This document shows positions 444-37,897 of a DNA stretch of 64,000 nt, piece after piece. The DNA is from Chloroflexota bacterium (GTDB lineage: Bacteria > Chloroflexota > UBA11872). Each line of letters starts with the position of its first letter. Within the stretch, counting starts at the first letter, position 1. The position numbers were made by a program, and so were the translations under genes. The stretch lies in assembly GCA_965263175.1 (NCBI GenBank), contig OZ253587.1, positions 136,105 through 200,104 on the forward strand, read 5' to 3'. The notes beneath the pieces are model-generated. The model was not told the origin of the DNA, did not search any database, and was given only the letters and a program-made list of their open reading frames with translations.

Positions 444-516
444 GGGCCCATAGCTCAGCTGGAAGAGCGCCTCAATGGCATTGAGGAGGTCGTCGGTTCG
501 AATCCGATTGGGTCCA
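444..516 (+). tRNA. tRNA-Ala (anticodon GGC)
   Basis: Cloverleaf read by eye. The acceptor stem GGGCCCA/TGGGTCC has the G3:U70 Ala identity pair. The anticodon stem CCTCA/TGAGG encloses the loop ATGGCAT, giving anticodon GGC. The T-arm has GGTTCGAATCC. The 3' end is followed by CCC, so CCA is not encoded. Confidence 0.85.
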
Positions 517-615
517 CCCCTTCTTCCAGCCCACGCCCCCTGTAGTCAGAACACGACCAGCTAGGACGCGCCTGGTAATGTCTCAATCTGCCCTGCGATT
601 TGCCAACAAAACTGT

Positions 616-635
616 TGCCAACAATCTTGTTGGCA
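616..635. promoter_or_regulatory. Perfect 8-bp inverted repeat TGCCAACA-ATCT-TGTTGGCA, with an extra direct half-site at 601-608, immediately upstream of the ATPase operon. Candidate operator.
   Basis: Seen in sequence: rc(TGCCAACA)=TGTTGGCA. It lies about 15 bp upstream of the ATG at 651. Confidence 0.4.
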
Positions 636-650
636 TGCTAGGGTCAGTCC

Positions 651-1910
651 ATGACCACCCAACTCATCAAGGCTGGCGCCAACTGGGTCGCTGGCGAACG
701 GTTCTTTGACCGCGAGGCGGAACTCCAGGATCTGAGAGAGCGGGTCCGGGACGGAACGCACACGCTCCTGACCGCACAACGGCGCATGGGCAAGACCAGC
801 CTGGTGCGCGAACTCCTGCGCCAGTTGGAAGGCGAAGGACACTTCGCCAGCGTTTTCGTAGACCTCGAAGCGGCAAACGACCCGGCCGACGCCGTGGCCG
901 AGATTGCGATTCAGGCTAGACCGGTCCAAGGCGCCTGGACCCGCATTCGGTCCGGGTTTGCTAATCAACTGCGCGATGTCCGCGATCACATCGAGGAAAT
1001 AGGACTTCTTGAGCTGAAGGTGAAGCTCCGCGCCGGCATCGACGCCGGGAACTGGCAGCACCGGGGAGATCAGGTCTTCGCGGCGCTGGCGTCAAGCGAG
1101 AAGCCAGTGGTGCTGGCCATCGACGAGCTCCCCATCCTCGTCAACCGTCTGCTGAAGGGTCCTGACTACCGCGTGACCCCCGAGCGGAAGGCCGCCGCGG
1201 ACCAGTTTCTCGCCTGGCTGAGAAAGAACGGACAAGACCATCGCAGTGCAGTGACTCTGATCATCTCAGGCAGCGTCAGCCTCGAACCGGTGCTTCGGCA
1301 AGCAGGTCTCAGCGCCCACGCCAACATCTATTCACCCCTGGAGTTGCATCCCTGGAGCCACGACACGTCCAGCCGCTGTCTGGCCGCCTTGGCCCGTACC
1401 TATCATCTGGACCTTTCGGAGGACGTGCGAACCGAGATTTGCCACCGCCTACGTTGTTGCGTTCCGCACCACGTGCAGCAGTTCTTCGACTACCTGCACC
1501 AGCATCTCCGCAGGAACGGCAGCAACACGGCGACCGTCGAAGATGTCGAACTGGTTTACAGACGTGAGTTGCTCAGCGTTCGAGGGCAGATCGACCTGGA
1601 GCACTACGAGGTGAGGCTCAGGCTGGTTCTCGGAGACGAGGGCTATGGGACCGCGCTCGAATTGCTAACCGAGGCGGCCGTGAACGACGGGCTGCTGACC
1701 CCACAGGCCCTTCGGCTTTACCGCGACGCGCTCGCGTCGTCAGACGCTGATGGCGGACTTCCAATTGAAGACGTGCTCTACGCGCTGGAACATGACGGGT
1801 ATTTGGAACGAAACACTGGCGGATACCGCTTCGTGTCCCGGCTGCTTCAGGACTGGTGGCTCGCCCGTCACGGTCAGTTCTTCACCCCCATCGAGGATCG
1901 CGACATATAG
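651..1910 (+). CDS. AAA+ ATPase, COG1672/Arch_ATPase-like (STAND-type NTPase)
   Basis: Walker A RRMGKTSLVREL, Walker B-like VVLAIDELP, about 419 aa. Architecture is typical of PF01637-like predicted ATPases. Confidence 0.6.
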   Translation: MTTQLIKAGANWVAGERFFDREAELQDLRERVRDGTHTLLTAQRRMGKTSLVRELLRQLEGEGHFASVFVDLEAANDPADAVAEIAIQARPVQGAWTRIRSGFANQLRDVRDHIEEIGLLELKVKLRAGIDAGNWQHRGDQVFAALASSEKPVVLAIDELPILVNRLLKGPDYRVTPERKAAADQFLAWLRKNGQDHRSAVTLIISGSVSLEPVLRQAGLSAHANIYSPLELHPWSHDTSSRCLAALARTYHLDLSEDVRTEICHRLRCCVPHHVQQFFDYLHQHLRRNGSNTATVEDVELVYRRELLSVRGQIDLEHYEVRLRLVLGDEGYGTALELLTEAAVNDGLLTPQALRLYRDALASSDADGGLPIEDVLYALEHDGYLERNTGGYRFVSRLLQDWWLARHGQFFTPIEDRDI

Positions 1911-1924
1911 AAGGTAAGGCTGCA

Positions 1925-4030
1925 ATGGCGGTAGCAGTTAAGAAATACAATCCCGGCTTCCTCAGCGACGACGACATCGTAGCTTCGTTCTGCGTCCGAT
2001 CCGCGGAGTTCGAGTCGCTCATCGAGTCCCTGCGCGAGTGCGACGCTAGCTCCAGCCCTCACTCGCTCGTCATTGGACCCCGCGGCAGCGGCAAGACGCA
2101 CTTGCTGCTTCGCGTGGCGGCCGAAGTGCGTCGGGACCCTGTCCTTGATGGTCTCTTTCCGATCGTATTTGCCGAGGAAAGCTACGAGGTCACGACGTGC
2201 GGTGAATTTTGGTTGGAGTGCCTGGGTCGCCTGTTCGGACAGGCGCCCAGCGAGGAGCGCGACAACCTGCGCCTGACCTACGACGAGCTCCGAACCGTTA
2301 CCGACGATCAAGTCTTGGCTGACCGCTGCATCGGCTCGCTGCTCGACTTTGCGGATCGTCACCAGACTCGACTGCTACTGCTGGTCGAAAACCTGAACAT
2401 GCTTTTGGCCGACATCGACGATCGCGAGGTCGGCTGGCGGCTGCGACAGACCCTGCAGACCGAGCCCCGAATCATCCTGTTTGGTACCGCCACCAGCCGA
2501 TTCGAAGAAATCGACAACCCTGAGCACGCCCTCTACGACCTCTTTCGGGTCATCAGTCTACGTTCACTCGACACCGACGAATGCAAGACTCTCTGGCAAA
2601 CCGTTGCTGGGAAGCCCTCCACCGGCGAAGCGGTTCGCCCACTCGAGATCCTCACCGGTGGCAACCCGCGTCTTCTCACCATCATCGCCCGCTTCGGCGC
2701 GGGCAGGTCGTTCCGCGACCTGATGGAGAACCTGCTCGACCTGGTCGACGAGCACACCGAGTACTTCAAAAGCCACCTCGAATCCCTCCCGCCCCAGGAA
2801 CGCCGTGTCTATCTCGCGCTGGCACGCCTCTGGAAGCCCTCCACCACCAGGGAAGTCGCCGACCTCGCGCGCCTCAACACCAACGCATGCAGTGCCCTTC
2901 TCCGGCGCCTCGTCCAGCGCAGCACGGTCGCCATCGAGGGCGGTACGCCCCGCCGTCAGCTGTATTACCTCACCGAGCGCCTCTACAACATCTACTACTT
3001 GTTACGTCGAGGCAAAGGCACTGACCGACTCGTTCAGGCGTTGATTGACTTTATGATATGCCTGTACTCGCCATCTGAGATAGCGGATGTCATCGAGAGT
3101 ACTATCGAGGACTCCTATCGCTTAAATGTTCTCCCACAGATTGTCGGAGCACAGATGGCCGGTGCACTGCTGAACAAGGCGCACTCCCTGCAAGGGATGG
3201 GTAAGAATGACGATGCTATCGCTCTCTATGACCAAGTGATTCAGCGGTTCGGCCCTGACCATGGCCCTGGCAATGAATTGCAGGTAGGTGCCGCATTGAC
3301 GAGCAAATCATCGCTGCTCATTCAGCTTGGTCGGGGACACGAGGCTATCGTTACTTGCGAAGAAGTCATGGGCCAATACAGAACGGGAAAGGTAGAATTC
3401 TCTGCAGTACTATCGGCGTATGCGCTTTGGGTTAAAGGCATAGCGATAGACGCGGTTGGCGATCCTCCAAAGGCTCTTGATACATTCAATCACGCCCTAG
3501 CGTATATTGACACCCTTGAAGCGCCGGTTCCTGACTTCATTATAGCTGGCATTCTACATTGCAAGGGATTAGTGTTTGTTCGGCTTAATCAGCTTGACAA
3601 AGCGCTTGCTGCATTCGACGAGGTCCTAACGCAATATGGCATGGCGTCGGAACTTCAGCAAACCGGAACAACAGCAATGGTCCTCATAAGTAAGGCTCTC
3701 GTATTGGATCAATTCGATCGCACCATTAGCCTCACCGAATTATCCTTTTTACTGAAGAGTCTGGCTGAGCACGGCAGCGTTCGTCCCGGCAGCACCGAGG
3801 CGCTGCTTCCCTTCGTTGCCGCCGTCGAACCGGCCAATGCCCTCGACCTCCTTCAGGCCTCGCCGGCGGCTCACCTTCTACTGCCCCTGATAACCGCCCT
3901 GCAGCAGGAACTGGGACAGAATCCGCAGGTCGCCAAAGAGGTCGCCGAAGTCGCCAGCGACGTGCGGACCAAACTGGCCGAAGCCAGAGTCAGACATGCG
4001 CATGCCCGGGCCCAACTCCACGCATCTTGA
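1925..4030 (+). CDS. AAA+/STAND-like ATPase with C-terminal TPR-like repeat region
   Basis: Walker A GPRGSGKTHLLL. A GGTAAGG Shine-Dalgarno sequence lies before the ATG at 1925. The C-terminal half is helical and repeat-rich. Positions 3040-3780 are about 50% GC, against about 68% for the flanks. Confidence 0.55.
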   Translation: MAVAVKKYNPGFLSDDDIVASFCVRSAEFESLIESLRECDASSSPHSLVIGPRGSGKTHLLLRVAAEVRRDPVLDGLFPIVFAEESYEVTTCGEFWLECLGRLFGQAPSEERDNLRLTYDELRTVTDDQVLADRCIGSLLDFADRHQTRLLLLVENLNMLLADIDDREVGWRLRQTLQTEPRIILFGTATSRFEEIDNPEHALYDLFRVISLRSLDTDECKTLWQTVAGKPSTGEAVRPLEILTGGNPRLLTIIARFGAGRSFRDLMENLLDLVDEHTEYFKSHLESLPPQERRVYLALARLWKPSTTREVADLARLNTNACSALLRRLVQRSTVAIEGGTPRRQLYYLTERLYNIYYLLRRGKGTDRLVQALIDFMICLYSPSEIADVIESTIEDSYRLNVLPQIVGAQMAGALLNKAHSLQGMGKNDDAIALYDQVIQRFGPDHGPGNELQVGAALTSKSSLLIQLGRGHEAIVTCEEVMGQYRTGKVEFSAVLSAYALWVKGIAIDAVGDPPKALDTFNHALAYIDTLEAPVPDFIIAGILHCKGLVFVRLNQLDKALAAFDEVLTQYGMASELQQTGTTAMVLISKALVLDQFDRTISLTELSFLLKSLAEHGSVRPGSTEALLPFVAAVEPANALDLLQASPAAHLLLPLITALQQELGQNPQVAKEVAEVASDVRTKLAEARVRHAHARAQLHAS

Positions 4031-4102
4031 AGCAAGCCGAGTCTTCGCGGGCCGGGCGCTCACGTCCCTAACCCCGCGCAGCGTCAGGCCGAGAGCCTCA
4101 CC

Positions 4103-4426
4103 CTACTGCAGCGGCGAGAACGCCGTTGGCGTCATGTAGCTGTTGAGCACGCGGGCCACGATTTGGCCGCTGGACTCGGTTTCGGCTTTCACGCGTTGCC
4201 ATTCCGGGTCCGACTGGAACGCCGTCCACTTGGCCTCGCGGTCGGCCTGGCTGGCGAAGCGGGTGATGTAGACCAGGCGGTCGCTGCGGCCCACCACCTC
4301 CTGCCAGAACCCCACCACCTCGATGTCCAGGCGCTCGAAGATCCGCATCGTGTGCTGGGAGAAACGGGCCATGATGGCGTCCATCCGGCCGGGCAGGATT
4401 TCGTAGACACGGAGTTCGTAGAGCAT
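4103..4426 (-). CDS. NIPSNAP family protein
   Basis: MLYELRVYEILPGRMDAIMARF...YITRFASQADREAKWTAFQSDPEWQ matches the NIPSNAP/Dabb-like fold signature. Start set at the MLYEL Met. Confidence 0.55.
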   Translation of the reverse strand: MLYELRVYEILPGRMDAIMARFSQHTMRIFERLDIEVVGFWQEVVGRSDRLVYITRFASQADREAKWTAFQSDPEWQRVKAETESSGQIVARVLNSYMTPTAFSPLQ

Positions 4427-4539
4427 CGGGGCGGTCTCTCGGCTGGCACTGCGCGCCGCAGCATGCCCCACCGGCCCGTTGCTTGCGTACTATGGCCGCC
4501 CGGCACTTCAGCCGAGTCGTATAAAGGGGCGGGGTCGCG

Positions 4540-8499: not shown

Positions 8500-8715
8500 G
8501 TGAACGATTTGGCTTCCCGACGACGCGTATCGCTGAGTGACCTCTATTCGGACGCCTGCCGGCGAATGGACATCACGCCGGAGGAAGCGCTGGGCTGCGA
8601 ACGACAGCCCGACCGCCTGCGGCTGATGATCACGCAAGACCGCTGGGTGGACTTTGAGCTGGTGGACGACCCGGAAAACGACCGCCTGGTTCTGGGCTCC
8701 ACGCTCGAGTCCTGA
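8500..8715 (+). CDS. small hypothetical protein (71 aa)
   Basis: Strong AAGGAG Shine-Dalgarno sequence 5 nt upstream of an in-frame GTG, and codon position 3 is GC-rich. No recognised family. Confidence 0.35.
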   Translation: MNDLASRRRVSLSDLYSDACRRMDITPEEALGCERQPDRLRLMITQDRWVDFELVDDPENDRLVLGSTLES

Positions 8716-8828
8716 GGCCGGTCGCCCTGGCTCTTGCGGCGCGTGGCTGCTGGCACTAGGGCACCCACACCGCAACCGCGCAGCCTCAGCGGCCAGGGCC
8801 GGGCGCTGAGGCGCCGCCACTCATGGCC

Positions 8829-9746
8829 CTAGCCCCCGCCAAACTGCAGGATCGACCAACTCACGGCCACCCACGCAATCACTGACGCCAGGATTCCCGG
8901 GTCTCCCAGCAGGACGCGCTCGGGTTCCTCGCCCGATCCGTTGGCCTGCAGGAGATAGACATACCGCAGGATTCCGTACAGCACGATCGGGATGGTGATC
9001 ATCATCAGGTGGTTCTCCGGCAGGTTGGGCGCGGAAAACGTGTACAGGGCGTAGCTGAGCGGCGTGGCCGAGGCCGTAATGACGATGAGCGTACGCAGGA
9101 ATTCCGGCGTATAGCGGTCCAGAACCGGACGGGCCGCGGACGAACGGGCTTCCGCGCCAAGTTCAGCCCAGCGTTTGCCCACGGCCAGGAACAACGCCAG
9201 CAGGAACGTGCAGATATAGAGCCAGGGCGAGATCGGCACCTCGATCACCAGGGCGCCCGCCGCCGCGCGAATCACAAACCCCACCGCAATCGCCAGTAGA
9301 TCCAGGATCACCAGGTGCTTGAGCACCAGCGAATAGCCGATCTGCAGCGCCAGATACACCGCCAGCGCCGCCCCAAACGGCCAGGTCAGCGATGTGGCCA
9401 GCGCCAAGGCCGCGACGCTGAAGAGCGCTCCCACGCCAACGGCCATGCCAACTGGCACCAGCCCGGCCGCGATCGGTCGGTGCCGCTTGACCTCATGCTG
9501 GCGGTCGCGTGACGCATCAATCGCGTCGTTCAGCATGTACAGCCCGGCCGTGGCCAGCGTGAAGATGGCCACGGCGGCCACGGCGGCCAGCAGGCTGGCG
9601 CCGCTGTGGAACTCGCGCGAAAACAGTAGCGCGGCCAGCACCAGCAGGTTCTTCGGCCACTGCCGCGGCCGGCTGCTGACGGCAAGCCCCACCAGCCTGG
9701 CCCTCAGCCTGGGGGATGGCTCCTGCGGTCGCTGCGCGGGTGTCAT
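8829..9746 (-). CDS. UbiA family prenyltransferase (decaprenyl-phosphate phosphoribosyltransferase-like)
   Basis: NDAIDASRD (NDxxDxxxD) motif and KRHRPIAAG, with about 8 TM helices. The start may instead be at 9836. Confidence 0.7.
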   Translation of the reverse strand: MTPAQRPQEPSPRLRARLVGLAVSSRPRQWPKNLLVLAALLFSREFHSGASLLAAVAAVAIFTLATAGLYMLNDAIDASRDRQHEVKRHRPIAAGLVPVGMAVGVGALFSVAALALATSLTWPFGAALAVYLALQIGYSLVLKHLVILDLLAIAVGFVIRAAAGALVIEVPISPWLYICTFLLALFLAVGKRWAELGAEARSSAARPVLDRYTPEFLRTLIVITASATPLSYALYTFSAPNLPENHLMMITIPIVLYGILRYVYLLQANGSGEEPERVLLGDPGILASVIAWVAVSWSILQFGGG

Positions 9747-9762
9747 GGCGCGATCAGGCCGG

Positions 9763-10467
9763 TCAGTCGCCGTACCGGCGGTCCAGCACCGCGTTGGCGG
9801 CCCGAACCACCCCGGCAAAGGCGAGCAGCAGGCCAACCAGGGTGCCGGCCGCAGCCCACGCCTCGCCGGCCGCGGCCCACGTCAGCAGCGCAAAGACTCC
9901 CCAGGCCGACCCCACCAGGCCCAGGATGATCAGCGGGAAGATCACTCCAATCGCCATCACCGTGTAGCCCGCCGTCTGCCGCACCAGGCCGGCGTCCACC
10001 ACGCGAAACGCGCGCCGGCTCGTACGGTCCAGGTGATAGGCCGCCGTGAACCAGAACACGCCCAAGATCAGCGGCGCGCCGACCCAGGCCGCCGCAACCA
10101 GGCTCGTCGACCGGTCCACGCGCGGGTCGTCGGGCGCTGGAATCGGCGGCCAGGCCATGTCCAGCGCCAGCGCCGCCTGGACCGACTCCACAATCCCGCC
10201 GGACCATGGCACCGCCACCGAAAGCAGCCCCCAGGTCAGCGCCCCCATCAGCGCCACGCCCAGGATCGTCAGACCGGTCCCGCGCCAGGTGCCGTCCATG
10301 CGCCGCAGCTGGTCCTGAACCATGACCAGGGTCTCTCGCAGCGTCAGCGGCTGGTACGGATCCTCGGACGTCGGCGCCGCGCGCTCCGCGGCCGGCGGCG
10401 GCGAGTCCGCCGGCTCGAGACCGACGTCGTCCTCAGGCCGGCTTGCTGGCGTCACCCGCTTGATCAC
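9763..10467 (-). CDS. hypothetical membrane protein
   Basis: Hydrophobic segments, and codon bias consistent with the genome. No family recognised. The start is uncertain. Confidence 0.35.
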   Translation of the reverse strand: MIKRVTPASRPEDDVGLEPADSPPPAAERAAPTSEDPYQPLTLRETLVMVQDQLRRMDGTWRGTGLTILGVALMGALTWGLLSVAVPWSGGIVESVQAALALDMAWPPIPAPDDPRVDRSTSLVAAAWVGAPLILGVFWFTAAYHLDRTSRRAFRVVDAGLVRQTAGYTVMAIGVIFPLIILGLVGSAWGVFALLTWAAAGEAWAAAGTLVGLLLAFAGVVRAANAVLDRRYGD

Positions 10468-10776
10468 CAGCGACGGCGCAGCCGACTGCTCGTCAGTGGG
10501 TGCGTCCGCACTCGGCCCAGGATCGGAGCGGCGTTCAGCGAGCGAGGATGCCAGCGGGTCAGCAGCGCGCGCAGAGCGTCGCGGCGCACCCGGCGGTTGC
10601 TCGCCATGCGTGTCGGCGGCCGTCCGGGTCGGCTGCCGGGCTTCGGGCTCGACGCGTGACGACGCGTCGGCATCGGACGCCCGATCGCGGCGCGGACGCG
10701 GCGGTCGAGGACGGCTGGGAATGAGACGGGCCTCCGGGCCAGATGCGGCTGGCCAATATTACGGAGACGCCAGCCA

Positions 10777-11442
10777 GTGAACCGCTCCCGGCGGACGGCC
10801 GGGCCACTCCTGAGCCCGCCTCGGAATCCCGACGCCTGGGTAAGTACCCACCGCGCCACCTACGAGCGCATGGCGGTGGACTACGCCCGCCGCATCGACG
10901 ACTACGCCGCCGCCGACGAAGCCGAACGCTTCACACGCCTGGCCGCGCCGTCGGACTGGAGCGGGCCGCGCATCCTCGACGCCGGCTGTGGCCCGGGCCG
11001 CGACGCCGCCCTGCTGCGGCTGGCCGGCGCCGAAGTCGTCGGCCTGGATCTGGCTCGGGCCATGCTGCAGGAAGCCCGGCGTCTCGACGAAAGCGCCCGG
11101 CTCTGCCAGGGCGACCTGCGTCGCCTGCCCTTCGCCGCGAACTCCTTCGACGCCGTCTGGTGCTTCGCCGCTCTGGGCCACCTGCCGCCCGCCGCCATCC
11201 CCCATGCGCTTAGCGAGTTCAGGCGCGTCCTCGATGGCGGCTGGCTCTACGTCGTCATCCGCCAAGGCTCCGGCGTCCGCGCCTCCTCCTGGCAGGGCTC
11301 GCTCCCCCGCTACTTCACCGACCTCACGCCCGAGACCCTCACCACCGCCCTCCACGCCGCCGGCTTCACCATCCACGAACAAAACACCTGGCCCGCCCCC
11401 AACCACCACCCCTGGCTCCACACCATCGCCCGGGGCTTCTGA
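10777..11442 (+). CDS. class I SAM-dependent methyltransferase (Methyltransf_11-like)
   Basis: ILDAGCGPGRDAALL (motif I), VVGLDLARAML, and FDAVWCFAALGHLP. Confidence 0.65.
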   Translation: MNRSRRTAGPLLSPPRNPDAWVSTHRATYERMAVDYARRIDDYAAADEAERFTRLAAPSDWSGPRILDAGCGPGRDAALLRLAGAEVVGLDLARAMLQEARRLDESARLCQGDLRRLPFAANSFDAVWCFAALGHLPPAAIPHALSEFRRVLDGGWLYVVIRQGSGVRASSWQGSLPRYFTDLTPETLTTALHAAGFTIHEQNTWPAPNHHPWLHTIARGF

Positions 11443-11447
11443 CCCCC

Positions 11448-12290
11448 TCAGTCGTTCAGCCAGGCCTCGTCCGGTTCCTCGCGCGGGCGGCCGCCGGCGG
11501 CGGTGTGGCGCTCGATGGCCGCAACAACCGCCCGCAGAAAGCCGTCCAACTCGCCCAGGTGCCCGCGCAACGCCTCGGCCACGGGAGCGCGGCCAATCGG
11601 ACCTGGAACGCGGTCCGACCCGGCGTCTCGAAACGTCACCGGCGCCTGAGCCACGCGTCGCCCGATGCCCGCAATATCCCCCAGCCAGATCCGTCGCTCC
11701 TGCAGCGCCGATCCCAGCGCGGGGTCCAGGAACATCAGGCGCCCCGTCAGTTCGCGGCCGCCGGGGTCCGGACGCACGCGCGACGCTAGCCGCAGGTCAA
11801 AGGCCTCGGCCAGCCAGCGTCCGGTTTGGGCCACGCTCTCGGCCACGTGACGCAGGGCCGCGCCGGCCAGCAGGTCGAACTCCGCCGTGGCCGGATCAGC
11901 CATCGCCGCGCCCGCCGCCGCGATGGCCGCCAGCCGGTAGTGCCCGAACACGCCCCAGGCGCAGTCCGACTCGGTCGTACCCGGCGCATCCGCGTACGCC
12001 TCCAGCAGCGGCCGGGCGAACGCCACGTCATGCGCAACGCCCGCGGGCAACGGCCGCCCCAGCGCCGCCAGGTCAGGCGGCGAGGCCGTCGGTCGACCGC
12101 CGAAAAGGTTCTCCACGAGGCTGCGAATCCACACCCATCGGTCGTCGGCAGAGAAGCCCTGGCGGTGGCGTCCGGCGAATCTGGCAGGCCGGTTCACTAC
12201 GATCTCTCGCCGCAATGTTTCACGTGAAACATCGCCGCCGTCACCCGGCCTGGGCCACAGGTCGGGGATACACTGAACGGCGTTTCGCAC
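11448..12290 (-). CDS. hypothetical protein
   Basis: Long ORF with genome-typical GC3 and no recognised motif. The start may be downstream of the parS site. Confidence 0.3.
   Translation of the reverse strand: MRNAVQCIPDLWPRPGDGGDVSRETLRREIVVNRPARFAGRHRQGFSADDRWVWIRSLVENLFGGRPTASPPDLAALGRPLPAGVAHDVAFARPLLEAYADAPGTTESDCAWGVFGHYRLAAIAAAGAAMADPATAEFDLLAGAALRHVAESVAQTGRWLAEAFDLRLASRVRPDPGGRELTGRLMFLDPALGSALQERRIWLGDIAGIGRRVAQAPVTFRDAGSDRVPGPIGRAPVAEALRGHLGELDGFLRAVVAAIERHTAAGGRPREEPDEAWLND
12216..12231. promoter_or_regulatory. parS site, TGTTTCACGTGAAACA (perfect match to consensus)
   Basis: Exact 16-bp palindrome identical to the ParB/Spo0J parS consensus tGTTNCACGTGAAACa, about 80 bp upstream of proS. 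Confidence 0.8.
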
Positions 12291-12310
12291 TCTGCCAACG
12301 GCCCTACTCC

Positions 12311-14074
12311 ATGCAGCGCATGTCCCGGTTATTCGCCCGCACGCTTCGCGACGATCCCGTCGAGGCGACCATCGTTTCCCATCGCCTCCTGTTGCGGGCT
12401 GGCTACATCCGGCCGTTGGGCGCGGGCATCTACAGCATGTTGCCGCTGGGCTGGCGGGTGCAGCGCCGGGTCGAGCAGATCGTGCGCGAGGAAATGGACC
12501 GCATTGGCTGCCAGGAACTGCTGATGCCCGTCGTCCACCCCTCCGATCTGTGGGAGCGCACGGGCCGCTTTCACTCGGTCGGCTCGGAGATGGCGCGGCT
12601 CAAGGACCGCTGGGGCCGCGACATGGTGCTGGCCATGACCCACGAGGAGGTCGCCACCGATCTCGGCAAGTGGGTCGCCTCGTCCTACCGCCAGCTGCCG
12701 CTTTGCATTTACCACTTCCAAACCAAGTTCCGCGACGAACCGCGCCCTCGCGGCGGTCTGCTGCGCGTCCGCGAGTTCACCATGAAGGACGCCTACAGCT
12801 TCAACACCGACCTTGAAAGCCAGGAGGCCACCTACCAGGACTTCATGACGGCCTACCTGCGCGCCTTCCGCCGCTGCGGCATCGAGCCGGCCGTCGTCGA
12901 ATCGGACGCCGGCGCAATGCAGGGATCCGGCGCCCACGAATTCCACTGCCTCACCGAGGCCGGCGAAGACACCCTGGTCGTCAGCGCCTCCGGCCGCTAC
13001 GCCGCCAACATTGAAATCGCAAAGGCCCAGAAGCCCGTCTTCGACCACGGCGAGCCGCAGCCTGTCGAAAAGGTCGCCACGCCCGGCCAGGAGACCATTG
13101 ACGACGTGGCCGCCTACCTGGGCGTGGAAACCCACCAGACCCTCAAGGCCGTCTTCTACTGGACCGGCGACGCCCTGGCCTTCGTGGCCATCCGCGGCGA
13201 CCTGCAGGTCAACGAAGCCAAGCTGCGCAGCCTGTTGCAAGCGCCCGACCTGCGGCTGGCCGCCGACCAGGAGCTCAAGGCCGCCGGCCTGGTCGCCGGC
13301 TACGCCTCACCCGTCGGACTGTCCAACGTCACCGTGGTGGTCGACGACTCCGTCGAGTCGACAACCAACCTGGTGGCCGGCGCCAACCAGCCTGGCTATC
13401 ACCTGATCAACGTCAACTTTCCGCGCGACTTTGAGGCCGATCTGCGCGGCGACATCGCCCAGGTGCGCGCCGGCGACCGCAGCATCGAGGACGACGAGCC
13501 GCTGGAGCTGATGACCGGCATTGAGATCGGCAACACCTTCAAGCTCGGTACCTTTTACAGCGACAAGTTGGACGCCCAATACCTGGCCGCCGACGGCCGA
13601 CGGCACCCCTTCATCATGGGCTCCTACGGCATCGGCATCGGCCGCCTGGCCGCCTCGGTGGTGGAGCGCTATCACGACGCCCACGGAATCATCTGGCCCG
13701 TCAGCGTGGCCCCCTACGACGTCCACATCGTGCAGCTCGGCGCCGGCGACGTGGCAGCGGACGCCGAGCGCCTGGCCGAGGAGCTCGAAGCCGCCGGCCT
13801 GGCCGTGCTGCTGGACGACCGCGGCGACAGCGCCGGAGTCAAATTCAACGACGCCGACCTGATCGGCCTGCCCTTCCGCCTCACCGTCAGCCGCCGCACC
13901 CTGGCTGCGTCGGCCGTCGAGTTCAAGCCCCGCGCGTCAACCGAACGCCAGTCCATCCCACGCGACCAGATCGTCAGCGCCGTCCTCGACGCCCGCGCCG
14001 CCGCGATCGCGGCCTTGACCCCCAACGCTCCCGTCACCATGCCCCCACTCGAAGCCGCCGGAGCAGTTCGCTAG
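12311..14074 (+). CDS. proS: proline--tRNA ligase (bacterial type with INS editing domain)
   Basis: MSRLFARTLRDDPVEATIVSHRLLLRAGYIRPLGAGIYSMLPLGWRV...LLMPVVHPSDLWERTGR aligns to the E. coli ProS N-terminus. About 587 aa. The ATG could be at 12311 or 12320. Confidence 0.85.
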   Translation: MQRMSRLFARTLRDDPVEATIVSHRLLLRAGYIRPLGAGIYSMLPLGWRVQRRVEQIVREEMDRIGCQELLMPVVHPSDLWERTGRFHSVGSEMARLKDRWGRDMVLAMTHEEVATDLGKWVASSYRQLPLCIYHFQTKFRDEPRPRGGLLRVREFTMKDAYSFNTDLESQEATYQDFMTAYLRAFRRCGIEPAVVESDAGAMQGSGAHEFHCLTEAGEDTLVVSASGRYAANIEIAKAQKPVFDHGEPQPVEKVATPGQETIDDVAAYLGVETHQTLKAVFYWTGDALAFVAIRGDLQVNEAKLRSLLQAPDLRLAADQELKAAGLVAGYASPVGLSNVTVVVDDSVESTTNLVAGANQPGYHLINVNFPRDFEADLRGDIAQVRAGDRSIEDDEPLELMTGIEIGNTFKLGTFYSDKLDAQYLAADGRRHPFIMGSYGIGIGRLAASVVERYHDAHGIIWPVSVAPYDVHIVQLGAGDVAADAERLAEELEAAGLAVLLDDRGDSAGVKFNDADLIGLPFRLTVSRRTLAASAVEFKPRASTERQSIPRDQIVSAVLDARAAAIAALTPNAPVTMPPLEAAGAVR

Positions 14075-24914: not shown

Positions 24915-25028
24915 TACCTAGCGGCAGATTCCATGCCCAAGTCTGGTAGAGTTCTATTCTGTCCACGCAAATTGCCAGCCAACCATTGGCATCGCAGCCC
25001 GGCGGCAGCGACGGAGGAACGAGGAATA

Positions 25029-26954
25029 GTGTCAACATTTAAAGCGAATGCGTTCCTACTCAAGAATATTCTTGACAATGTTGCCAACGGTAGCATCCAA
25101 CTCCCCGACTTCCAGCGCGGCTGGGTGTGGGACGACGACCGAATAAAGGACCTGCTGGTCAGCATTTCGCGCGGCTTCCCTATCGGTGCCGTGATGACTC
25201 TCGATGCCGGTGGGGACTTGCGGTTTCGAAGCCGCTTAGTCGAGGGCGTGGATTCGAATGGCGACGATCAAGCATCCGAATACCTGCTGGATGGCCAACA
25301 GCGTCTTACGTCGCTGTACCAGGCGCTGCGGTATGAAGGGCCGGTAGAAACCCGCCACCGACCTGGTGGAAGATGGGTCATCAAGCGATGGTATTACATC
25401 GATATGCAAAAGATTCTGAATCCCCTGATCGATCTGGAGGACACCGTCGTTAGCGTTCCTGAAGACCGAGTTGTCAGGTCAAATTTCGGCCGTGATATCA
25501 CTTTGGATCTGTCCTCGTCTGACTTCGAATTCAAGCATCATATGCTGCCCACCGAGAAAGTCATGAATATCATGGATTGGATGCTTGGATACCTTGGTTA
25601 TTGGAAGGATCGCGGCGAGCATCCGGAGGGTGACCCGGTTGCTTTCTTCACCCAGTTCAAGGCTGCCGTGCTGGACAACTTCACCGACTACCAGTTGCCG
25701 GTCATCAGCCTTGGAAAAGGGACGTCCAAGGAGGCTGTTTGCACGGTCTTCGAAAAGGTCAACACCGGCGGCGTAACTTTGAATGTGTTCGAGTTGGTGA
25801 CCGCCGCCTTCGCTGCGGAAGTGGGCGAGGACGATTTCTCGCTGCGGGACGACTGGGAAGCGCGAAGCAGGCGGCTACACTCGGAATTCGGCGTGCTTCA
25901 AGGCGTCGGCGCTGATCAATTCCTGCAAACGGTGACACTGCTGGCGACCCAAGCACGGCGCAGGCGAGCTACTTCTGAGACTCCGTCGAGTCAACTTCCC
26001 GGTATCGGCTGTAGGCGAGCAGACATCCTCAACCTGACGTTCAGCGACTACCAGACATGGGCCGACCGAGTGGAAGAGGGATTCAGGGTCGCCGCAAAGT
26101 ACCTGCGCGGCCAATTCGTTTTCACCAGGTACAACGTGCCTTACAACACCCAACTGGTTCCCCTGGCAGCGTTGTACGTTGAGTTGGGCAAGGAGTTGGC
26201 GCCCGCCAACGCGCAGGATAAGCTGAACCGCTGGTTCTGGTGCGGCATCTTCAGCGAAGCCTATGGCGGCGGCGGTGAGACTCAGTTTGCTCGTGACCTC
26301 GAACAGGTTGCCAACTACATCCGAGGCGGCGCCGAACCGGAACTTGTTAGCCAGGCGAGCTTTGTTCCCGAGCGGCTGTTGTCGTTGAGAACACGCAACA
26401 GCTCTGCCTACAAGGGTCTGTACGCGCTGCAAATGAAAAGCAACGCGGCTGACTGGCGCAGCGATGGACCCTTGACCTTCGCCACCATCCATGACGAGAA
26501 CATCGATATCCACCATATTTTCCCGGTCGCCTGGTGCAGGCATGCCGATCCGGAGGTGCCAAGACACCTGTACGACTCGGTAATCAACAAGACGCCGATT
26601 GACGCGCAGACGAACCGAATCATCGGTGGTAAGGCGCCGTCCATCTACTTACCCCGCTTGCGCCGTCGTGATATCGGCGAAGAAAAATTGAATCGAATTC
26701 TTGAATCGCATTGGATCGATCCCAAGCTGCTTGAGAGTGATCTTTTTGGCGACTGCTTCGTCGAGCGCGGTCAAGCAATGCTCGACTTGATCAACCGCAC
26801 GATGGGTAAGCCAGCCGTCGATGGGCGTCAGGTCTTTCGCGATGCGCTGGACTCCGCCGGTCTGGCTGAGCAGGACAGCGATGACGAGGTTGAGTACGAT
26901 CCCATCGGCGACAGCGCCTTTGGCGACGAGACACTGGGCGGCGACAATTCATAA
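25029..26954 (+). CDS. GmrSD-like type IV restriction endonuclease candidate (N-terminal DUF262, C-terminal DUF1524/HNH-like)
   Basis: N-terminus LPDFQRGWVWDDDRIKDLLVSI...DGQQRLTSLY (DUF262 DGQQR motif). C-terminus DIHHIFPVAW (DUF1524 His-Me finger). GTG at 25029 with a GGAGGAA RBS. The upstream ATG at 24933 is an alternative start. Confidence 0.65.
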   Translation: MSTFKANAFLLKNILDNVANGSIQLPDFQRGWVWDDDRIKDLLVSISRGFPIGAVMTLDAGGDLRFRSRLVEGVDSNGDDQASEYLLDGQQRLTSLYQALRYEGPVETRHRPGGRWVIKRWYYIDMQKILNPLIDLEDTVVSVPEDRVVRSNFGRDITLDLSSSDFEFKHHMLPTEKVMNIMDWMLGYLGYWKDRGEHPEGDPVAFFTQFKAAVLDNFTDYQLPVISLGKGTSKEAVCTVFEKVNTGGVTLNVFELVTAAFAAEVGEDDFSLRDDWEARSRRLHSEFGVLQGVGADQFLQTVTLLATQARRRRATSETPSSQLPGIGCRRADILNLTFSDYQTWADRVEEGFRVAAKYLRGQFVFTRYNVPYNTQLVPLAALYVELGKELAPANAQDKLNRWFWCGIFSEAYGGGGETQFARDLEQVANYIRGGAEPELVSQASFVPERLLSLRTRNSSAYKGLYALQMKSNAADWRSDGPLTFATIHDENIDIHHIFPVAWCRHADPEVPRHLYDSVINKTPIDAQTNRIIGGKAPSIYLPRLRRRDIGEEKLNRILESHWIDPKLLESDLFGDCFVERGQAMLDLINRTMGKPAVDGRQVFRDALDSAGLAEQDSDDEVEYDPIGDSAFGDETLGGDNS

Positions 26955-33873: not shown

Positions 33874-34464
33874 ATGACCGTCAACCTTCTGCCGGAATTC
33901 ATCAGGTCGAACTACGAAGTTCACGAGACAAAGCACAGCTGCGCGATCCTCAGAGGCGACTTTCCTGGGGAATGGCGTGATCTGGTCGATATGCTGACCG
34001 AGTTCAGGCTGCTGGAAAGCTATGTGTCAACGCCGGGAGGCAGGAAGTCTCGGGTGTCAAGTTTTATAGACTCCTACTTGTATAACCGATGTTGGTTAGA
34101 GAAAGAGTTTGAAACCAAGGTGGTTGTGGACGGTCAAGAAAGCGAGCAGCCCACGCATAAGATCGACTGCTTCCGCAACCGGATAGCCTTGGAGATCGAA
34201 TGGAACAACAAAGACACGTTCTATGACCGCGACCTCAACAACTTCAGGCTGTTGTTCGATTTGCATGCGGTGAGTGTTGGAATTATCATCACACGGTCCG
34301 ACGACCTTCAGGAAATCTTCAATCAGCTGGGCCGGGGCAAGTCGTACGGGTCGTCAACCACACACATGTCCAAGCTGTTGCCGCGTTTGGCCGGCGGCGG
34401 CGGCGGCGGTTGCCCGGTTCTGGCTTTTGGTATCACGTCCAAGCTATATGTCCCTGGGGAATAG
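33874..34464 (+). CDS. type II restriction endonuclease, BglII/BamHI/BstYI family (R1)
   Basis: IDCFRNRIALEIEWNNKDTFYDRDLNNFRLLF...GIIITRSD aligns to the BglII core DFGKRDTLVEVQFSNYPFLLNN...AIIITKG (ExE variant). About 52% GC. Contains a (GGC)6 run encoding GGGGGG. Confidence 0.65.
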   Translation: MTVNLLPEFIRSNYEVHETKHSCAILRGDFPGEWRDLVDMLTEFRLLESYVSTPGGRKSRVSSFIDSYLYNRCWLEKEFETKVVVDGQESEQPTHKIDCFRNRIALEIEWNNKDTFYDRDLNNFRLLFDLHAVSVGIIITRSDDLQEIFNQLGRGKSYGSSTTHMSKLLPRLAGGGGGGCPVLAFGITSKLYVPGE

Positions 34465-34467
34465 GGC

Positions 34468-35136
34468 GTGAGCATCTCCCAGGGCCTGTTGGATGGATTT
34501 GAGGAACAGAGGTTTTCGACCATTCTCGCCGACCCACCGTGGCAGTTTCAGAACCGCACCGGCAAGGTTGCTCCAGAGCACCGGCGACTTTCCCGCTATC
34601 AAACGTTGTCACTGGAAGAGATCTGCGACCTTCCGGTAGCGTCCATAGCGGCTGATCCTGCACACCTGTACTTGTGGGTGCCCAACGCGCTATTGGCCGA
34701 AGGTCTCAAGGTCATGCAATGCTGGGGGTTTACGTACAAAACGAATCTCATCTGGTACAAGGTCCGAAAGGACGGCGGCCCGGACCGGCGCGGCGTCGGG
34801 TTCTATTTCAGGAACGTAACGGAGATTCTCCTATTTGGTGTACGTGGAAAGAACGCGCGAACCCTGCCACCAGGCCGCAGCCAGGAGAACATCATTACTT
34901 CAAGGAAACGGGAGCATAGCCGCAAACCGGACGAGCAGTACCCCATCATCGAGGCGTGCAGCCCCGCCCCACGAGTCGAGTTGTTTGCCCGCGGGTCCCG
35001 CCCCGGCTGGCATACGTGGGGCGACCAGAGCGAGAACTACACCCCGGACTGGAGTACGTACGCCAACCACTCCCAGGTCGTCCGGTCGCAGGAAGCACCA
35101 CGACCGCCATCCTTGCCGACAAGCGCGCGCTTATGA
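34468..35136 (+). CDS. MT-A70 family N6-adenine DNA methyltransferase (M)
   Basis: ILADPPWQFQNRTGK (DPPW motif). GTG start 4 nt after the R1 stop. About 52% GC. Confidence 0.7.
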   Translation: MSISQGLLDGFEEQRFSTILADPPWQFQNRTGKVAPEHRRLSRYQTLSLEEICDLPVASIAADPAHLYLWVPNALLAEGLKVMQCWGFTYKTNLIWYKVRKDGGPDRRGVGFYFRNVTEILLFGVRGKNARTLPPGRSQENIITSRKREHSRKPDEQYPIIEACSPAPRVELFARGSRPGWHTWGDQSENYTPDWSTYANHSQVVRSQEAPRPPSLPTSARL

Positions 35137-37240: not shown

Positions 37241-37897
37241 TTAACTTGCCAATGCCTCGTCATCGGATTCATGAAACCTGATCGCTGCATTTACATCCTG
37301 AATGGTTAGGGTTGGGAACTCGCTTATGATGGCGCCTGATTCATATCCGGCCTTGTGGAATGCCCATATCGCCGATGTGGGGATTCGTGTGCCGGATATA
37401 ACAGGTCGATTATGTGCAACGTACCTGTGCTTGGATATCCGGCCAACGTCGTCTTCTTGTCGCTGGCGCAGTCGATGCACAGCAGTGGACACCTCGCCTA
37501 TGACATCTTGCAGTTCGATGTCGAAGGTTGACTGCGCACCATCCTTGGCTAAGACGATCACGTCATCGCTCTGTTGGACGAATACATCTCGGCCTCTGGT
37601 AAAGAACCGAAGGCTTGCCCAAGGGTGCTCATAGTGCTCATGCAGCCACGCGCCGATCTTTCGCAGCGACTGGAGCGACGCTCTGTTGCGCAGAATGGCG
37701 AGCGTTCTGAGACCAACAACATCTCGAAATGAGTACAGACGCGAATAGGGACCGCGTCTCTTACGGGCTGATTCAGGTCTGAAGAACTCAGTCGCGTCCC
37801 AGTAGCGAAGACGCCGATCGGGGAGACCTGTCAGGCGGCACACCTGATCGGCGGTGAATGCCCTAATTGGGTTATCGAAGGAAATCTCAGAAAGCAC
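37241..37897 (-). CDS. MerR-type HTH fused to DUF433 (putative antitoxin)
   Basis: FTADQVCRLTGLPDRRLRYWD (MerR HTH). The C-terminus ISGTRIPTSAIWAFHKAGYESGAIISEFPTLTIQDVNAAIRFHE matches DUF433. 35 bp upstream of the DUF5615 gene. Confidence 0.55.
   Translation of the reverse strand: MLSEISFDNPIRAFTADQVCRLTGLPDRRLRYWDATEFFRPESARKRRGPYSRLYSFRDVVGLRTLAILRNRASLQSLRKIGAWLHEHYEHPWASLRFFTRGRDVFVQQSDDVIVLAKDGAQSTFDIELQDVIGEVSTAVHRLRQRQEDDVGRISKHRYVAHNRPVISGTRIPTSAIWAFHKAGYESGAIISEFPTLTIQDVNAAIRFHESDDEALAS

Follow-up and report, generated by a model that had tools for sequence, protein, structure and literature searches.

Two adjacent genes, here called A and B, are the subject of this report. They lie on the plus strand of a 64,000-nt stretch of Chloroflexota bacterium DNA (GTDB lineage UBA11872; NCBI GenBank assembly GCA_965263175.1, contig OZ253587.1, positions 136,105 to 200,104 of the forward strand), which we refer to throughout as the window. 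Both encode STAND/Arch_ATPase-like P-loop NTPases, and the second carries, in frame, a segment of low GC content that encodes tetratricopeptide repeats (TPRs). A sequence-only reading of this DNA had described two adjacent P-loop ATPases of 419 and 701 amino acids (aa), 14 bp apart and beside a tRNA gene, an arrangement that the open reading frames (ORFs) and ARAGORN confirm. It had further proposed that the low-GC segment was a foreign sensor module spliced into an NTPase gene of native composition, as part of a variable or defence island. Comparison of the pair with its relatives upholds the exchange of sensors and alters much of the rest.

The A-B gene pair and its predicted proteins

The pair is made up of the following parts.

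651-1910, plus strand: gene A, 419 aa with an ATG start, an Arch_ATPase-type AAA+/STAND-like NTPase
1925-4030, plus strand: gene B, 701 aa from its ATG; a longer ORF with a GTG start begins at 1856
1925-3037, plus strand: conserved N module of B (aa 1-371), with a P-loop nucleotide-binding domain (NBD), a predicted helical domain and a predicted TrmB-like winged helix-turn-helix (wHTH)
3038-3778, plus strand: variable TPR cassette of B (aa 372-618), identical with the low-GC block and recognised from GC content at third codon positions (GC3) and TPR matches
3779-4030, plus strand: conserved C-terminal helical tail of B (aa 619-701), recognised from an alignment motif

The two genes are separated by 14 bp on the same strand, and the distance from the A stop to the B start is ~15 nt in nearly every relative's locus, so that the 701-aa start of B is supported by the conservation of this spacing. 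The gene downstream of B is convergent.

Gene A matches the Pfam families AAA_22, ATPase_2 and AAA_16, passing the AAA_22 cut-off (32 versus 27 bits), and scores 29.8 bits against Arch_ATPase (PF01637), under the gathering cut-off of 33.2; precomputed PF01637 matches are present on many of its orthologues. When the PDB was searched by sequence with profiles of both proteins, the A profile retrieved 2qen alone (E 0.0035) and the B profile nothing useful. The fold of A agrees with those of the solved PF01637 members PABY2304 (PDB 2qen) and SSO1545 (PDB 2fna), at 14-19% sequence identity. These archaeal Arch_ATPases have no known function and, unlike A, no known pairing with a TPR-STAND protein. 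The Walker A motif of A (GKT, aa 47-49, nt 789-797) is invariant, as is the DE of its Walker B motif (hhhhDE, aa 153-159, nt 1107-1127), and its C terminus is a winged helix (aa ~350-410). A search of IMG/VR with the A profile found no phage-borne relative.

Gene B possesses the P-loop NBD with Walker A and B motifs and the C-terminal repeat domain that define STAND proteins. Its Walker A motif (GPRGSGKT, aa 51-58, nt 2075-2098) is invariant, and its Walker B motif is atypical (LLLLVEN, aa 150-156, nt 2372-2392), with E155 and N156 invariant; this hhhhVEN form would suit a switch that stays nucleotide-bound better than a fast hydrolase. The Pfam matches of B comprise AAA_16 (40.9 bits against a cut-off of 32.6), an ORC-CDC6-like N terminus and TrmB, the last corresponding to the wHTH at aa 291-343 (nt 2795-2953), which scores an E value of 0.0024 here and of 1e-6 to 6e-5 in relatives. 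In agreement with the claim that the low-GC block is in frame and encodes TPRs, matches to TPR_12, TPR_1 and TPR_2 fall within it, at aa 411-475 and 543-569. The cassette region is modelled confidently by AlphaFold2 (AF2), and in comparisons of the model the NBD structurally resembles Orc/Cdc6 and the TPR part resembles PCI, Rap, PlcR and domain III of MalT. The tail carries the motif SPAAxLLLPLxTALQQELGQxPQVAKEV and showed no similarity to Pfam families or PDB chains; the idea that it serves as a homotypic adaptor to A was rejected, as the two share no similarity (hhalign probability 0.1%). Taken together, Pfam and structural comparison bear out the Arch_ATPase/STAND-type assignment of both proteins.

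An exchangeable cassette in gene B

The GC content falls to 47.5-54% in 200-nt intervals across 3001-3800, as had been estimated (~50%). The flanks within the pair lie at ~60-66% rather than at the ~68% that had been claimed; the remainder of the pair ranges over 57-67%, the DNA past 4030 over 65-73%, and 67-70% is reached by the neighbouring genes only. For aa 372-618 of B, the observed GC at the first, second and third codon positions (GC1/GC2/GC3) is 0.61/0.38/0.52, against 0.63/0.38/0.85 predicted from the segment's own amino acids and the codon usage of the window. The dip is thus located at synonymous sites, and since the deficit sits at third positions, amino-acid composition, which would give a total GC of 0.617 with host codon usage instead of the 0.501 observed, is ruled out as its cause. 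Among 346 intervals of 247 codons drawn from 29 ORFs of the window (mean GC3 0.794 +/- 0.095), the cassette lies 2.9 standard deviations below the mean, and the 0.6% of intervals that are equally low come mostly from the block itself. The surrounding NTPase genes are not of native composition either: GC3 is 0.77 in the N part of B, 0.70 in its tail and 0.74 in gene A, where 0.84-0.85 is expected. The whole A-B pair is therefore compositionally atypical, with the cassette as its extreme.

We then compared B with its relatives after splitting it into N (aa 1-371), M (aa 372-618) and C (aa 619-701). Identity to relatives is 60-95% in N across all phyla, 21-43% in M in most of them and intermediate in C, and M remains at 21-43% even in syntenic orthologues with an N identity of 81-95%. 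Alignment columns are variable from aa ~383 to ~645 (nt ~3071-3859). When 104 proteins of ~700 aa are clustered at 60% identity, N falls into a single group and M into 53, and 32 of the 46 pairs that are at least 95% identical in N are less than 50% identical in M. Two syntenic loci that carry different alleles (L086 and L088) come from one sample. Between cassette alleles dN/dS is ~0.2, with dS saturated, which argues for cassettes that function and are under constraint. A homology search with the cassette by itself returned no match even though one relative, P0001, is 98% identical there, probably an artefact of word indexing or bias filtering.

A genome scan yielded 80 loci, on which the counts of pairing and of the GC dip are based. 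In nearly all of these ~80 loci GC3 is lower in M than in N, with the value in M following the level of the host. The dip is therefore a family-wide, standing property of the variable segment and not a one-off insert. The sequence-only reading had held that the same dip in orthologues would speak for amino-acid composition and against recombination; the dip does occur in orthologues and in other phyla, yet amino acids do not drive it, and recombination is directly visible.

That visibility comes from three relatives whose loci are all syntenic with the window and whose similarities to B are incongruent along its length. P0001 (locus L085) is 89% identical in N, 98% in M and 82% in C; P0011 (L086) is 95%, 43% and 61% identical; and P0009 (L087) is 87%, 43% and 87% identical. 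Sliding nucleotide identity places the breakpoints. Against L085, identity is 97-100% over 2776-3900 and 70-90% elsewhere, and delimits the following feature.

2837-3927, plus strand: recombination tract common to the window and L085 (P0001), comprising the cassette and parts of both conserved flanks

This tract holds 23 mismatches in ~1090 bp, against a divergence of 12-15% on either side, and dS to L085 is 0.038 over 2837-3925, compared with 0.60 in A, 0.54 in the N part of B and 0.57 in the tail. L086 displays the reverse pattern, with 94-99% identity over 1876-2775 followed by 47-60% across the block (dS 0.15 in the N part, >2 in the block). L087 has no mismatch over 3900-4063 (dS 0 in the tail) and 52-61% identity in the block. 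Syntenic relatives other than L085 can thereby combine flanks of 95-99% identity with a saturated cassette. The block thus belongs to a large set of ancient allelic cassettes, which pass from one related genome to another via crossovers in conserved flanks. Since the similarities of N and M are incongruent and discrete recombination tracts span the block, the sensor can be regarded as swappable, as had been proposed; what does not survive is its description as a single foreign splice.

Upstream boxes, relatives and genomic setting

Immediately upstream of A lies a short repeat array that overlaps a possible promoter.

599-637, strand not applicable: three near-palindromic 9-bp boxes, phased at 15 bp and ending 14 nt before the ATG of A
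599-607: box 1, TTTGCCAAC, from the repeat search
614-622: box 2, GTTGCCAAC, from the repeat search
629-637: box 3, GTTGGCATG, from the repeat search
616-644, plus strand: possible promoter read from the sequence, TTGCCA, 17 nt, TAGGGT

The boxes share the consensus GTTGSCAAC, and the array is the sole one of its kind in the 64 kb. At least one box (with at most one mismatch) occurs within 160 nt upstream of A in 73 of 74 loci from many phyla, and at least two boxes chained at 14-16 bp occur in 52 of the 74, compared with 2 of 5897 control tiles; the arrays of relatives hold 2-5 boxes. The same boxes precede solo B-like genes on Agrobacterium and Sphingobium plasmids, where there is no A gene. 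When metagenome contigs were scanned blind for pairs of boxes, 33 of the 120 loci returned had an A(-B) module alongside. The scan found no target other than A or B, the rest being mostly chance matches in coding regions (for example, a recurrent gut protein with VANMTVAN). The only two other exact GTTGCCAAC 9-mers in the window are inside the ORF at 24933-26954, probably by chance.

We regard the array as a putative operator of the module. As this cis element stays with the module across phyla, the module is likely to encode its own box binder, and the wHTH of B is the better candidate, because the solo B-like genes of plasmids keep the boxes without A. A module-encoded winged helix, likelier that of B, thus probably binds the boxes and autoregulates the operon. 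The ATG of A stands 7 nt downstream of TAGGGT, and the succession of last box, TAnnnT and, ~7-10 nt further on, ATG recurs in Chloroflexota loci, suggesting a leaderless transcript whose promoter is overlapped by boxes; a strict sigma-70 scan upstream of A called no promoter.

The family to which B belongs is large. More than 3400 homologues were found, the best 120 of them mostly full-length (~700 aa) and 56-91% identical. The N module alone has 1344 representatives at 50% clustering (E<=1e-30); the best 150 of these are 353-1589 aa in length and, with one exception, bear the module at the N terminus. In 249 of 269 family members the tail is C-terminal or nearly so, regardless of the length of the TPR array. 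The architecture of the family is accordingly a conserved N module, a TPR array variable in both length and sequence, and a conserved tail. Shortened forms of B (512-552 aa) occur in L019, L020, L023, L026, L040, L041, L045, L063 and L084, and as P0110 and P0116; they keep the N module (64-81% identical) and mostly the tail, lack most of the TPR array, and may be natural 'sensor-less' alleles or decayed copies.

The 80 loci span Chloroflexota/Dehalococcoidia, Caldilineaceae, Acidobacteriota, Bryobacterales, Latescibacterota, Spirochaetia, Rhodothermales, Gemmatimonadota, Binatia, Opitutales and Proteobacteria. The names of the metagenome-assembled genomes (RHO_bin, APA_bin, Langseth, Palauibacter and Aquatic Symbiosis-style isolates) suggest that most carriers are marine sponge symbionts; the module is also present in other metagenomes, and more distant forms reside on plasmids of cultured bacteria. 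In essentially all 80 loci a homologue of A (45-83% identical) lies immediately 5' of B, and A is upstream of B in L085-L091 as well. A is, in this sense of gene adjacency, the obligate partner of B. A distant A-like and B-like pair (18-27% identity) is found on a Clostridium plasmid (C. tagluense pCM022-183; L094, 5740-8569), where the two genes overlap by 11 nt and are preceded by a different palindrome, TTGACAAAAcaaTTTTTGTCAA, pointing to an ancient origin for both the pairing and an upstream operator.

Several genomes contain more than one copy of the module. In one Longimicrobiales genome, two A-B modules stand tail to tail (L069, 5434-12515), the second on the opposite strand (B at 8608-11124, A at 11115-12515), and two unlinked copies occur in OZ220693.1, OZ244929.1, OZ242276.1 and the assembly with CBDCEF01 contigs. 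Clustering of neighbouring ORFs revealed no third gene conserved among the loci, synteny being otherwise lineage-specific; the sole neighbours recurring across phyla are sulfatase and short-chain dehydrogenase (SDR) paralogues. The ORF list and the same clustering showed no conserved small ORF or signalling-peptide gene adjoining the pair.

The other features at this end of the window concern the tRNA gene.

444-518, plus strand: tRNA-Ala (GGC), called by ARAGORN
229-443: truncated gene remnant, equal to the 3' end of a gene that is intact upstream of the tRNA in relatives
1-228, strand not applicable: low-GC (46%) DNA at the window edge, from its composition, with no match in syntenic relatives

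The same tRNA lies upstream of the pair in L001, L005-L007, L031, L086 and L087. It directly adjoins A in the window, L087 and L031; in L086, L001, L006 and L007 the two are parted by a 0.9-1.7-kb insert of differing content (DUF1697; YCII plus MarR), and in L005 by a 4.1-kb insert flanked by a 102-bp duplication of the 3' tRNA region (226-300 and 4382-4483). The proposal of a tRNA-linked variable island therefore holds for the tRNA-Ala, which is an insertion hot spot in relatives, and fails for the pair itself, which is stable: in its lineage it keeps a fixed syntenic position with NIPSNAP, two TrkA, Amt, L25, UbiA, a methyltransferase and ProS. The intact counterpart of the remnant at 229-443 is NTP_transf_3/IspD-like in L086 and L087. 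Positions 229-645 align with L087 and L031 at 94-95%, and 229-518 with five other loci, so that there looks to be an insertion or rearrangement breakpoint at ~228.

Elsewhere in the window, two further low-GC islets hold defence genes. The first, at ~25-27 kb (56-57% GC), contains a 673-aa ORF with a GmrSD_N domain (24933-26954; E 3e-29), probably a type IV restriction enzyme, and the second a BglII-like restriction endonuclease (E 1e-43) beside an MT-A70 methyltransferase (E 2e-32) at 33874-35136. A MerR-DUF433 protein is encoded at 37241-37897.

A candidate sensor module and its alternatives

We read A-B as a horizontally spreading two-gene STAND-type sensor module that is autoregulated, effector-less and probably immune, and give this reading a probability of roughly 0.6. 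B would be the sensor and its TPR array the surface for ligand recognition, present in the population in the form of numerous, deeply divergent allelic cassettes, with the conserved flanks acting as homology arms through which whole cassettes cross between related genomes by homologous recombination. The winged helix, likelier that of B, would bind the boxes. The role would be to sense a foreign protein, for example from a phage or mobile element, and as no enzymatic effector is present, we infer an output through A, through DNA binding or through both. Two causes may keep the GC3 low: the alleles, far older than the lineages that host them, pass from one lineage to another, and heteroduplex-dependent, GC-biased repair could not act between alleles that are ~50% diverged.

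Rare relatives provide the link to immunity. In the B-SMODS fusions P0118, P0119 and P0241, a CBASS-type oligonucleotide cyclase follows the tail, and the C-terminal domain of P0118 matches a PADLOC CBASS cyclase at E 2e-112. Locus L089 (5701-11616) has an operon of A, a B-CD-NTase fusion and, directly downstream, a ThiF/E1-like gene, followed by an MmeI-type restriction-modification gene, with transposases flanking the region; from its gene content it appears to be a STAND-TPR-gated cyclase. Type II CBASS, which combines a CD-NTase with the E1/E2-like Cap2, is comparable to these B-SMODS relatives only, in its cyclase and in the ThiF/E1 gene downstream, and differs from them in that their cyclase is fused to the B sensor with A still present; the window pair has no cyclase, E1 or effector. 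In P0103 an HNH nuclease follows the tail and A is retained upstream, and in L090/L091 (2547-12451) an operon of A and B-HNH is located between type I-C cas genes (Cas3, Cas5d, Csd1), an integrase fragment, fragments of type I restriction subunits and HigB. The solo B-like plasmid genes of Sphingobium baderi (L092) and Agrobacterium salinitolerans (L093), 40-43% identical in the N module, adjoin genes with adenylate/guanylate-cyclase domains, a ThiF gene, a Pycsar effector and AbiE genes. Of the 128 ORFs that neighbour 19 diverse loci, a few are strong PADLOC matches, and the defence genes in the other low-GC islets of the window also speak for a link to immunity. Immune or conflict sensing is the best reading because these fusions, the defence neighbours and the allelic-cassette polymorphism are found together.

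The Avs STAND NTPases are the closest comparison on the immune side. B shares with them a P-loop NBD and a variable, C-terminal TPR-like sensor, and is predicted to have their helical domain and winged helix as well (PMC13581612), and its rare relatives with HNH or CD-NTase domains sit, likewise, among defence genes. It differs in that the B of the window and ~98% of its relatives are effector-less, any effector being C-terminal after the conserved tail, and in having an obligate second NTPase, a short sensor, an operator-like box array and no match to a PADLOC or NCBIfam system.

A number of observations weigh against the immune interpretation. The Pfam searches that the sequence-only reading had envisaged matched AAA_16 and TPR, but no effector domain in A or B, and SMODS or HNH domains are present in only ~4 of 269 relatives. 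A fused effector is the criterion by which STAND clades have been called defence-associated (PMC13581612, Methods), and with ~1.5% of members carrying one, this family does not qualify. PADLOC v2 and NCBIfam models gave P-loop-local matches only, all weak (mad8 at E ~1e-4, DS8 and DS41 at E >0.04). The sensor of B is short (~250-330 aa) relative to those of characterised Avs proteins, the cassette has no gene-wide signal of positive selection (dN/dS ~0.2, dS saturated), and the model of B is poor at aa 190-365 (pLDDT <50), which covers much of the helical and wHTH region. The neighbours of the pair in its own lineage are housekeeping genes at a fixed position. Finally, a transcription regulator would account just as well for the wHTH domains, the boxes and the MalT/Rap/PlcR-like TPR folds.

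This last point leads to the strongest alternative, which we consider appreciably less probable than an immune module: that A-B acts as a transcription factor responsive to a ligand, as MalT/AfsR/LAL or RRNPP proteins do, oligomerising on the boxes and controlling its own operon and perhaps distant targets, with the cassettes reflecting diversification of signal or 'pherotype' among co-resident symbionts, or the sensing of host signals. Like MalT/LAL-type regulators, B has an AAA_16-type NBD and, after it, a TPR-like sensor; repeated short boxes, as putative binding sites, stand at the promoter; and MalT domain III and the MalT NOD are among its structural matches. The conserved box array overlapping the likely promoter, the winged HTH in both proteins, the lack of an effector and the fixed housekeeping neighbours are all as such a regulator would have them. 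On the other hand, Pfam finds no LuxR- or SARP-type DNA-binding domain in the pair, the sole HTH of B being the predicted winged helix within the NOD; its sensor is hypervariable and undergoes recombination; a partner ATPase is needed; and some relatives carry immune-type fusions, with a CD-NTase or HNH nuclease attached to the same tail within defence islands. Nor is there a co-varying peptide or signal gene beside the cassette, given the 14-bp A-B gap and the convergent gene downstream, and the pair's own promoter is the one place in the 64 kb where the box array is found.

Three further alternatives concern the origin of the cassette rather than the function of the pair. That a single foreign low-GC TPR cassette was lately spliced into a native-composition NTPase gene in this genome would agree with the recent date of the transfer relative to the flanks (dS 0.04 versus 0.54-0.60 against L085) and with a cassette GC3 of 0.52, far from the 0.85 of the genome. 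It is largely refuted, and in our view very improbable, as the same dip tracks host GC in nearly all of the ~80 relatives, which belong to many phyla, the pair is atypical outside the cassette too (GC3 0.70-0.77), and the family has had its layout of N module, TPR array and tail from its ancestor onwards. We give as little credence to a dip that arose passively from TPR amino-acid composition or relaxed constraint with no link to recombination: it would account for the family-wide occurrence and the slightly lower GC2 of the cassette (0.38 versus 0.43), yet the shortfall from the expected GC (0.501 against 0.617 overall, 0.52 against 0.85 at third positions) refutes it as a sufficient explanation, dN/dS of ~0.2 indicates constraint, and the recombination tracts are shown directly.

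STAND 'antigen sensors' are targets of diversity-generating retroelements (DGRs) in other bacteria and resemble B in combining a diversified C-terminal sensor with a conserved NTPase, whereas A-B exchanges ancient allelic cassettes by homologous recombination (bioRxiv 10.1101/2023.09.22.558884 for the DGR-diversified proteins). Despite this precedent, targeted hypermutation by a DGR, or intragenic shuffling of repeats, is the least credible source of the variability, since the window has no template repeat, no second copy of the block and no high-identity repeats inside it, no reverse transcriptase is a neighbour common to the loci, and synonymous saturation with dN/dS ~0.2 is unlike adenine-specific mutagenesis of a short variable region.

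Returning to the immune sensor module, an analogy with eukaryotes can be drawn. The paired sensor/helper NLRs of plants and NAIP/NLRC4 of animals consist of adjacent NOD-type NTPases, in which a polymorphic sensor works with a conserved partner. A-B likewise comprises two adjacent NOD-type NTPases, one with a polymorphic repeat sensor and the other conserved, with no homology implied past the STAND fold and with only a putative hetero-oligomer. By extension, A-B could be an effector-less bacterial counterpart of such pairs: B would recognise a non-self protein (of a phage, a mobile element or a neighbouring cell) and assemble with A on the iteron-like boxes, giving a transcriptional response or a block to replication, and balancing selection among co-resident symbionts, largely of sponges, would keep dozens of ancient alleles that are exchanged as cassettes. 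We offer this more specific scheme tentatively and think it rather unlikely as a whole.

Searches of the literature on sponge symbionts and on Arch_ATPase proteins found no description of the A-B family, and to our knowledge, and from the searches made, a two-NTPase, effector-less, box-preceded family has so far not been described. Characterised bacterial STAND/NLR-like examples are mostly single proteins with a fused effector. The present family is large and distinct from these, being a two-NTPase operon that is effector-less, and the module has spread across many phyla together with its own conserved operator-like boxes. For genome scanning in general, a GC3 trough that persists inside a gene can be the mark of a hypervariable module that recombines and not of a recent foreign insertion. 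For the family itself, a fixed chromosomal site with allelic sensor cassettes and clear breakpoints amounts to a natural experiment on the diversification of sensor specificity, and the cassettes form a concrete set of alleles with which specificity can be tested; if a defence role is confirmed, the pair would offer an entry point to signalling by an effector-less STAND pair.

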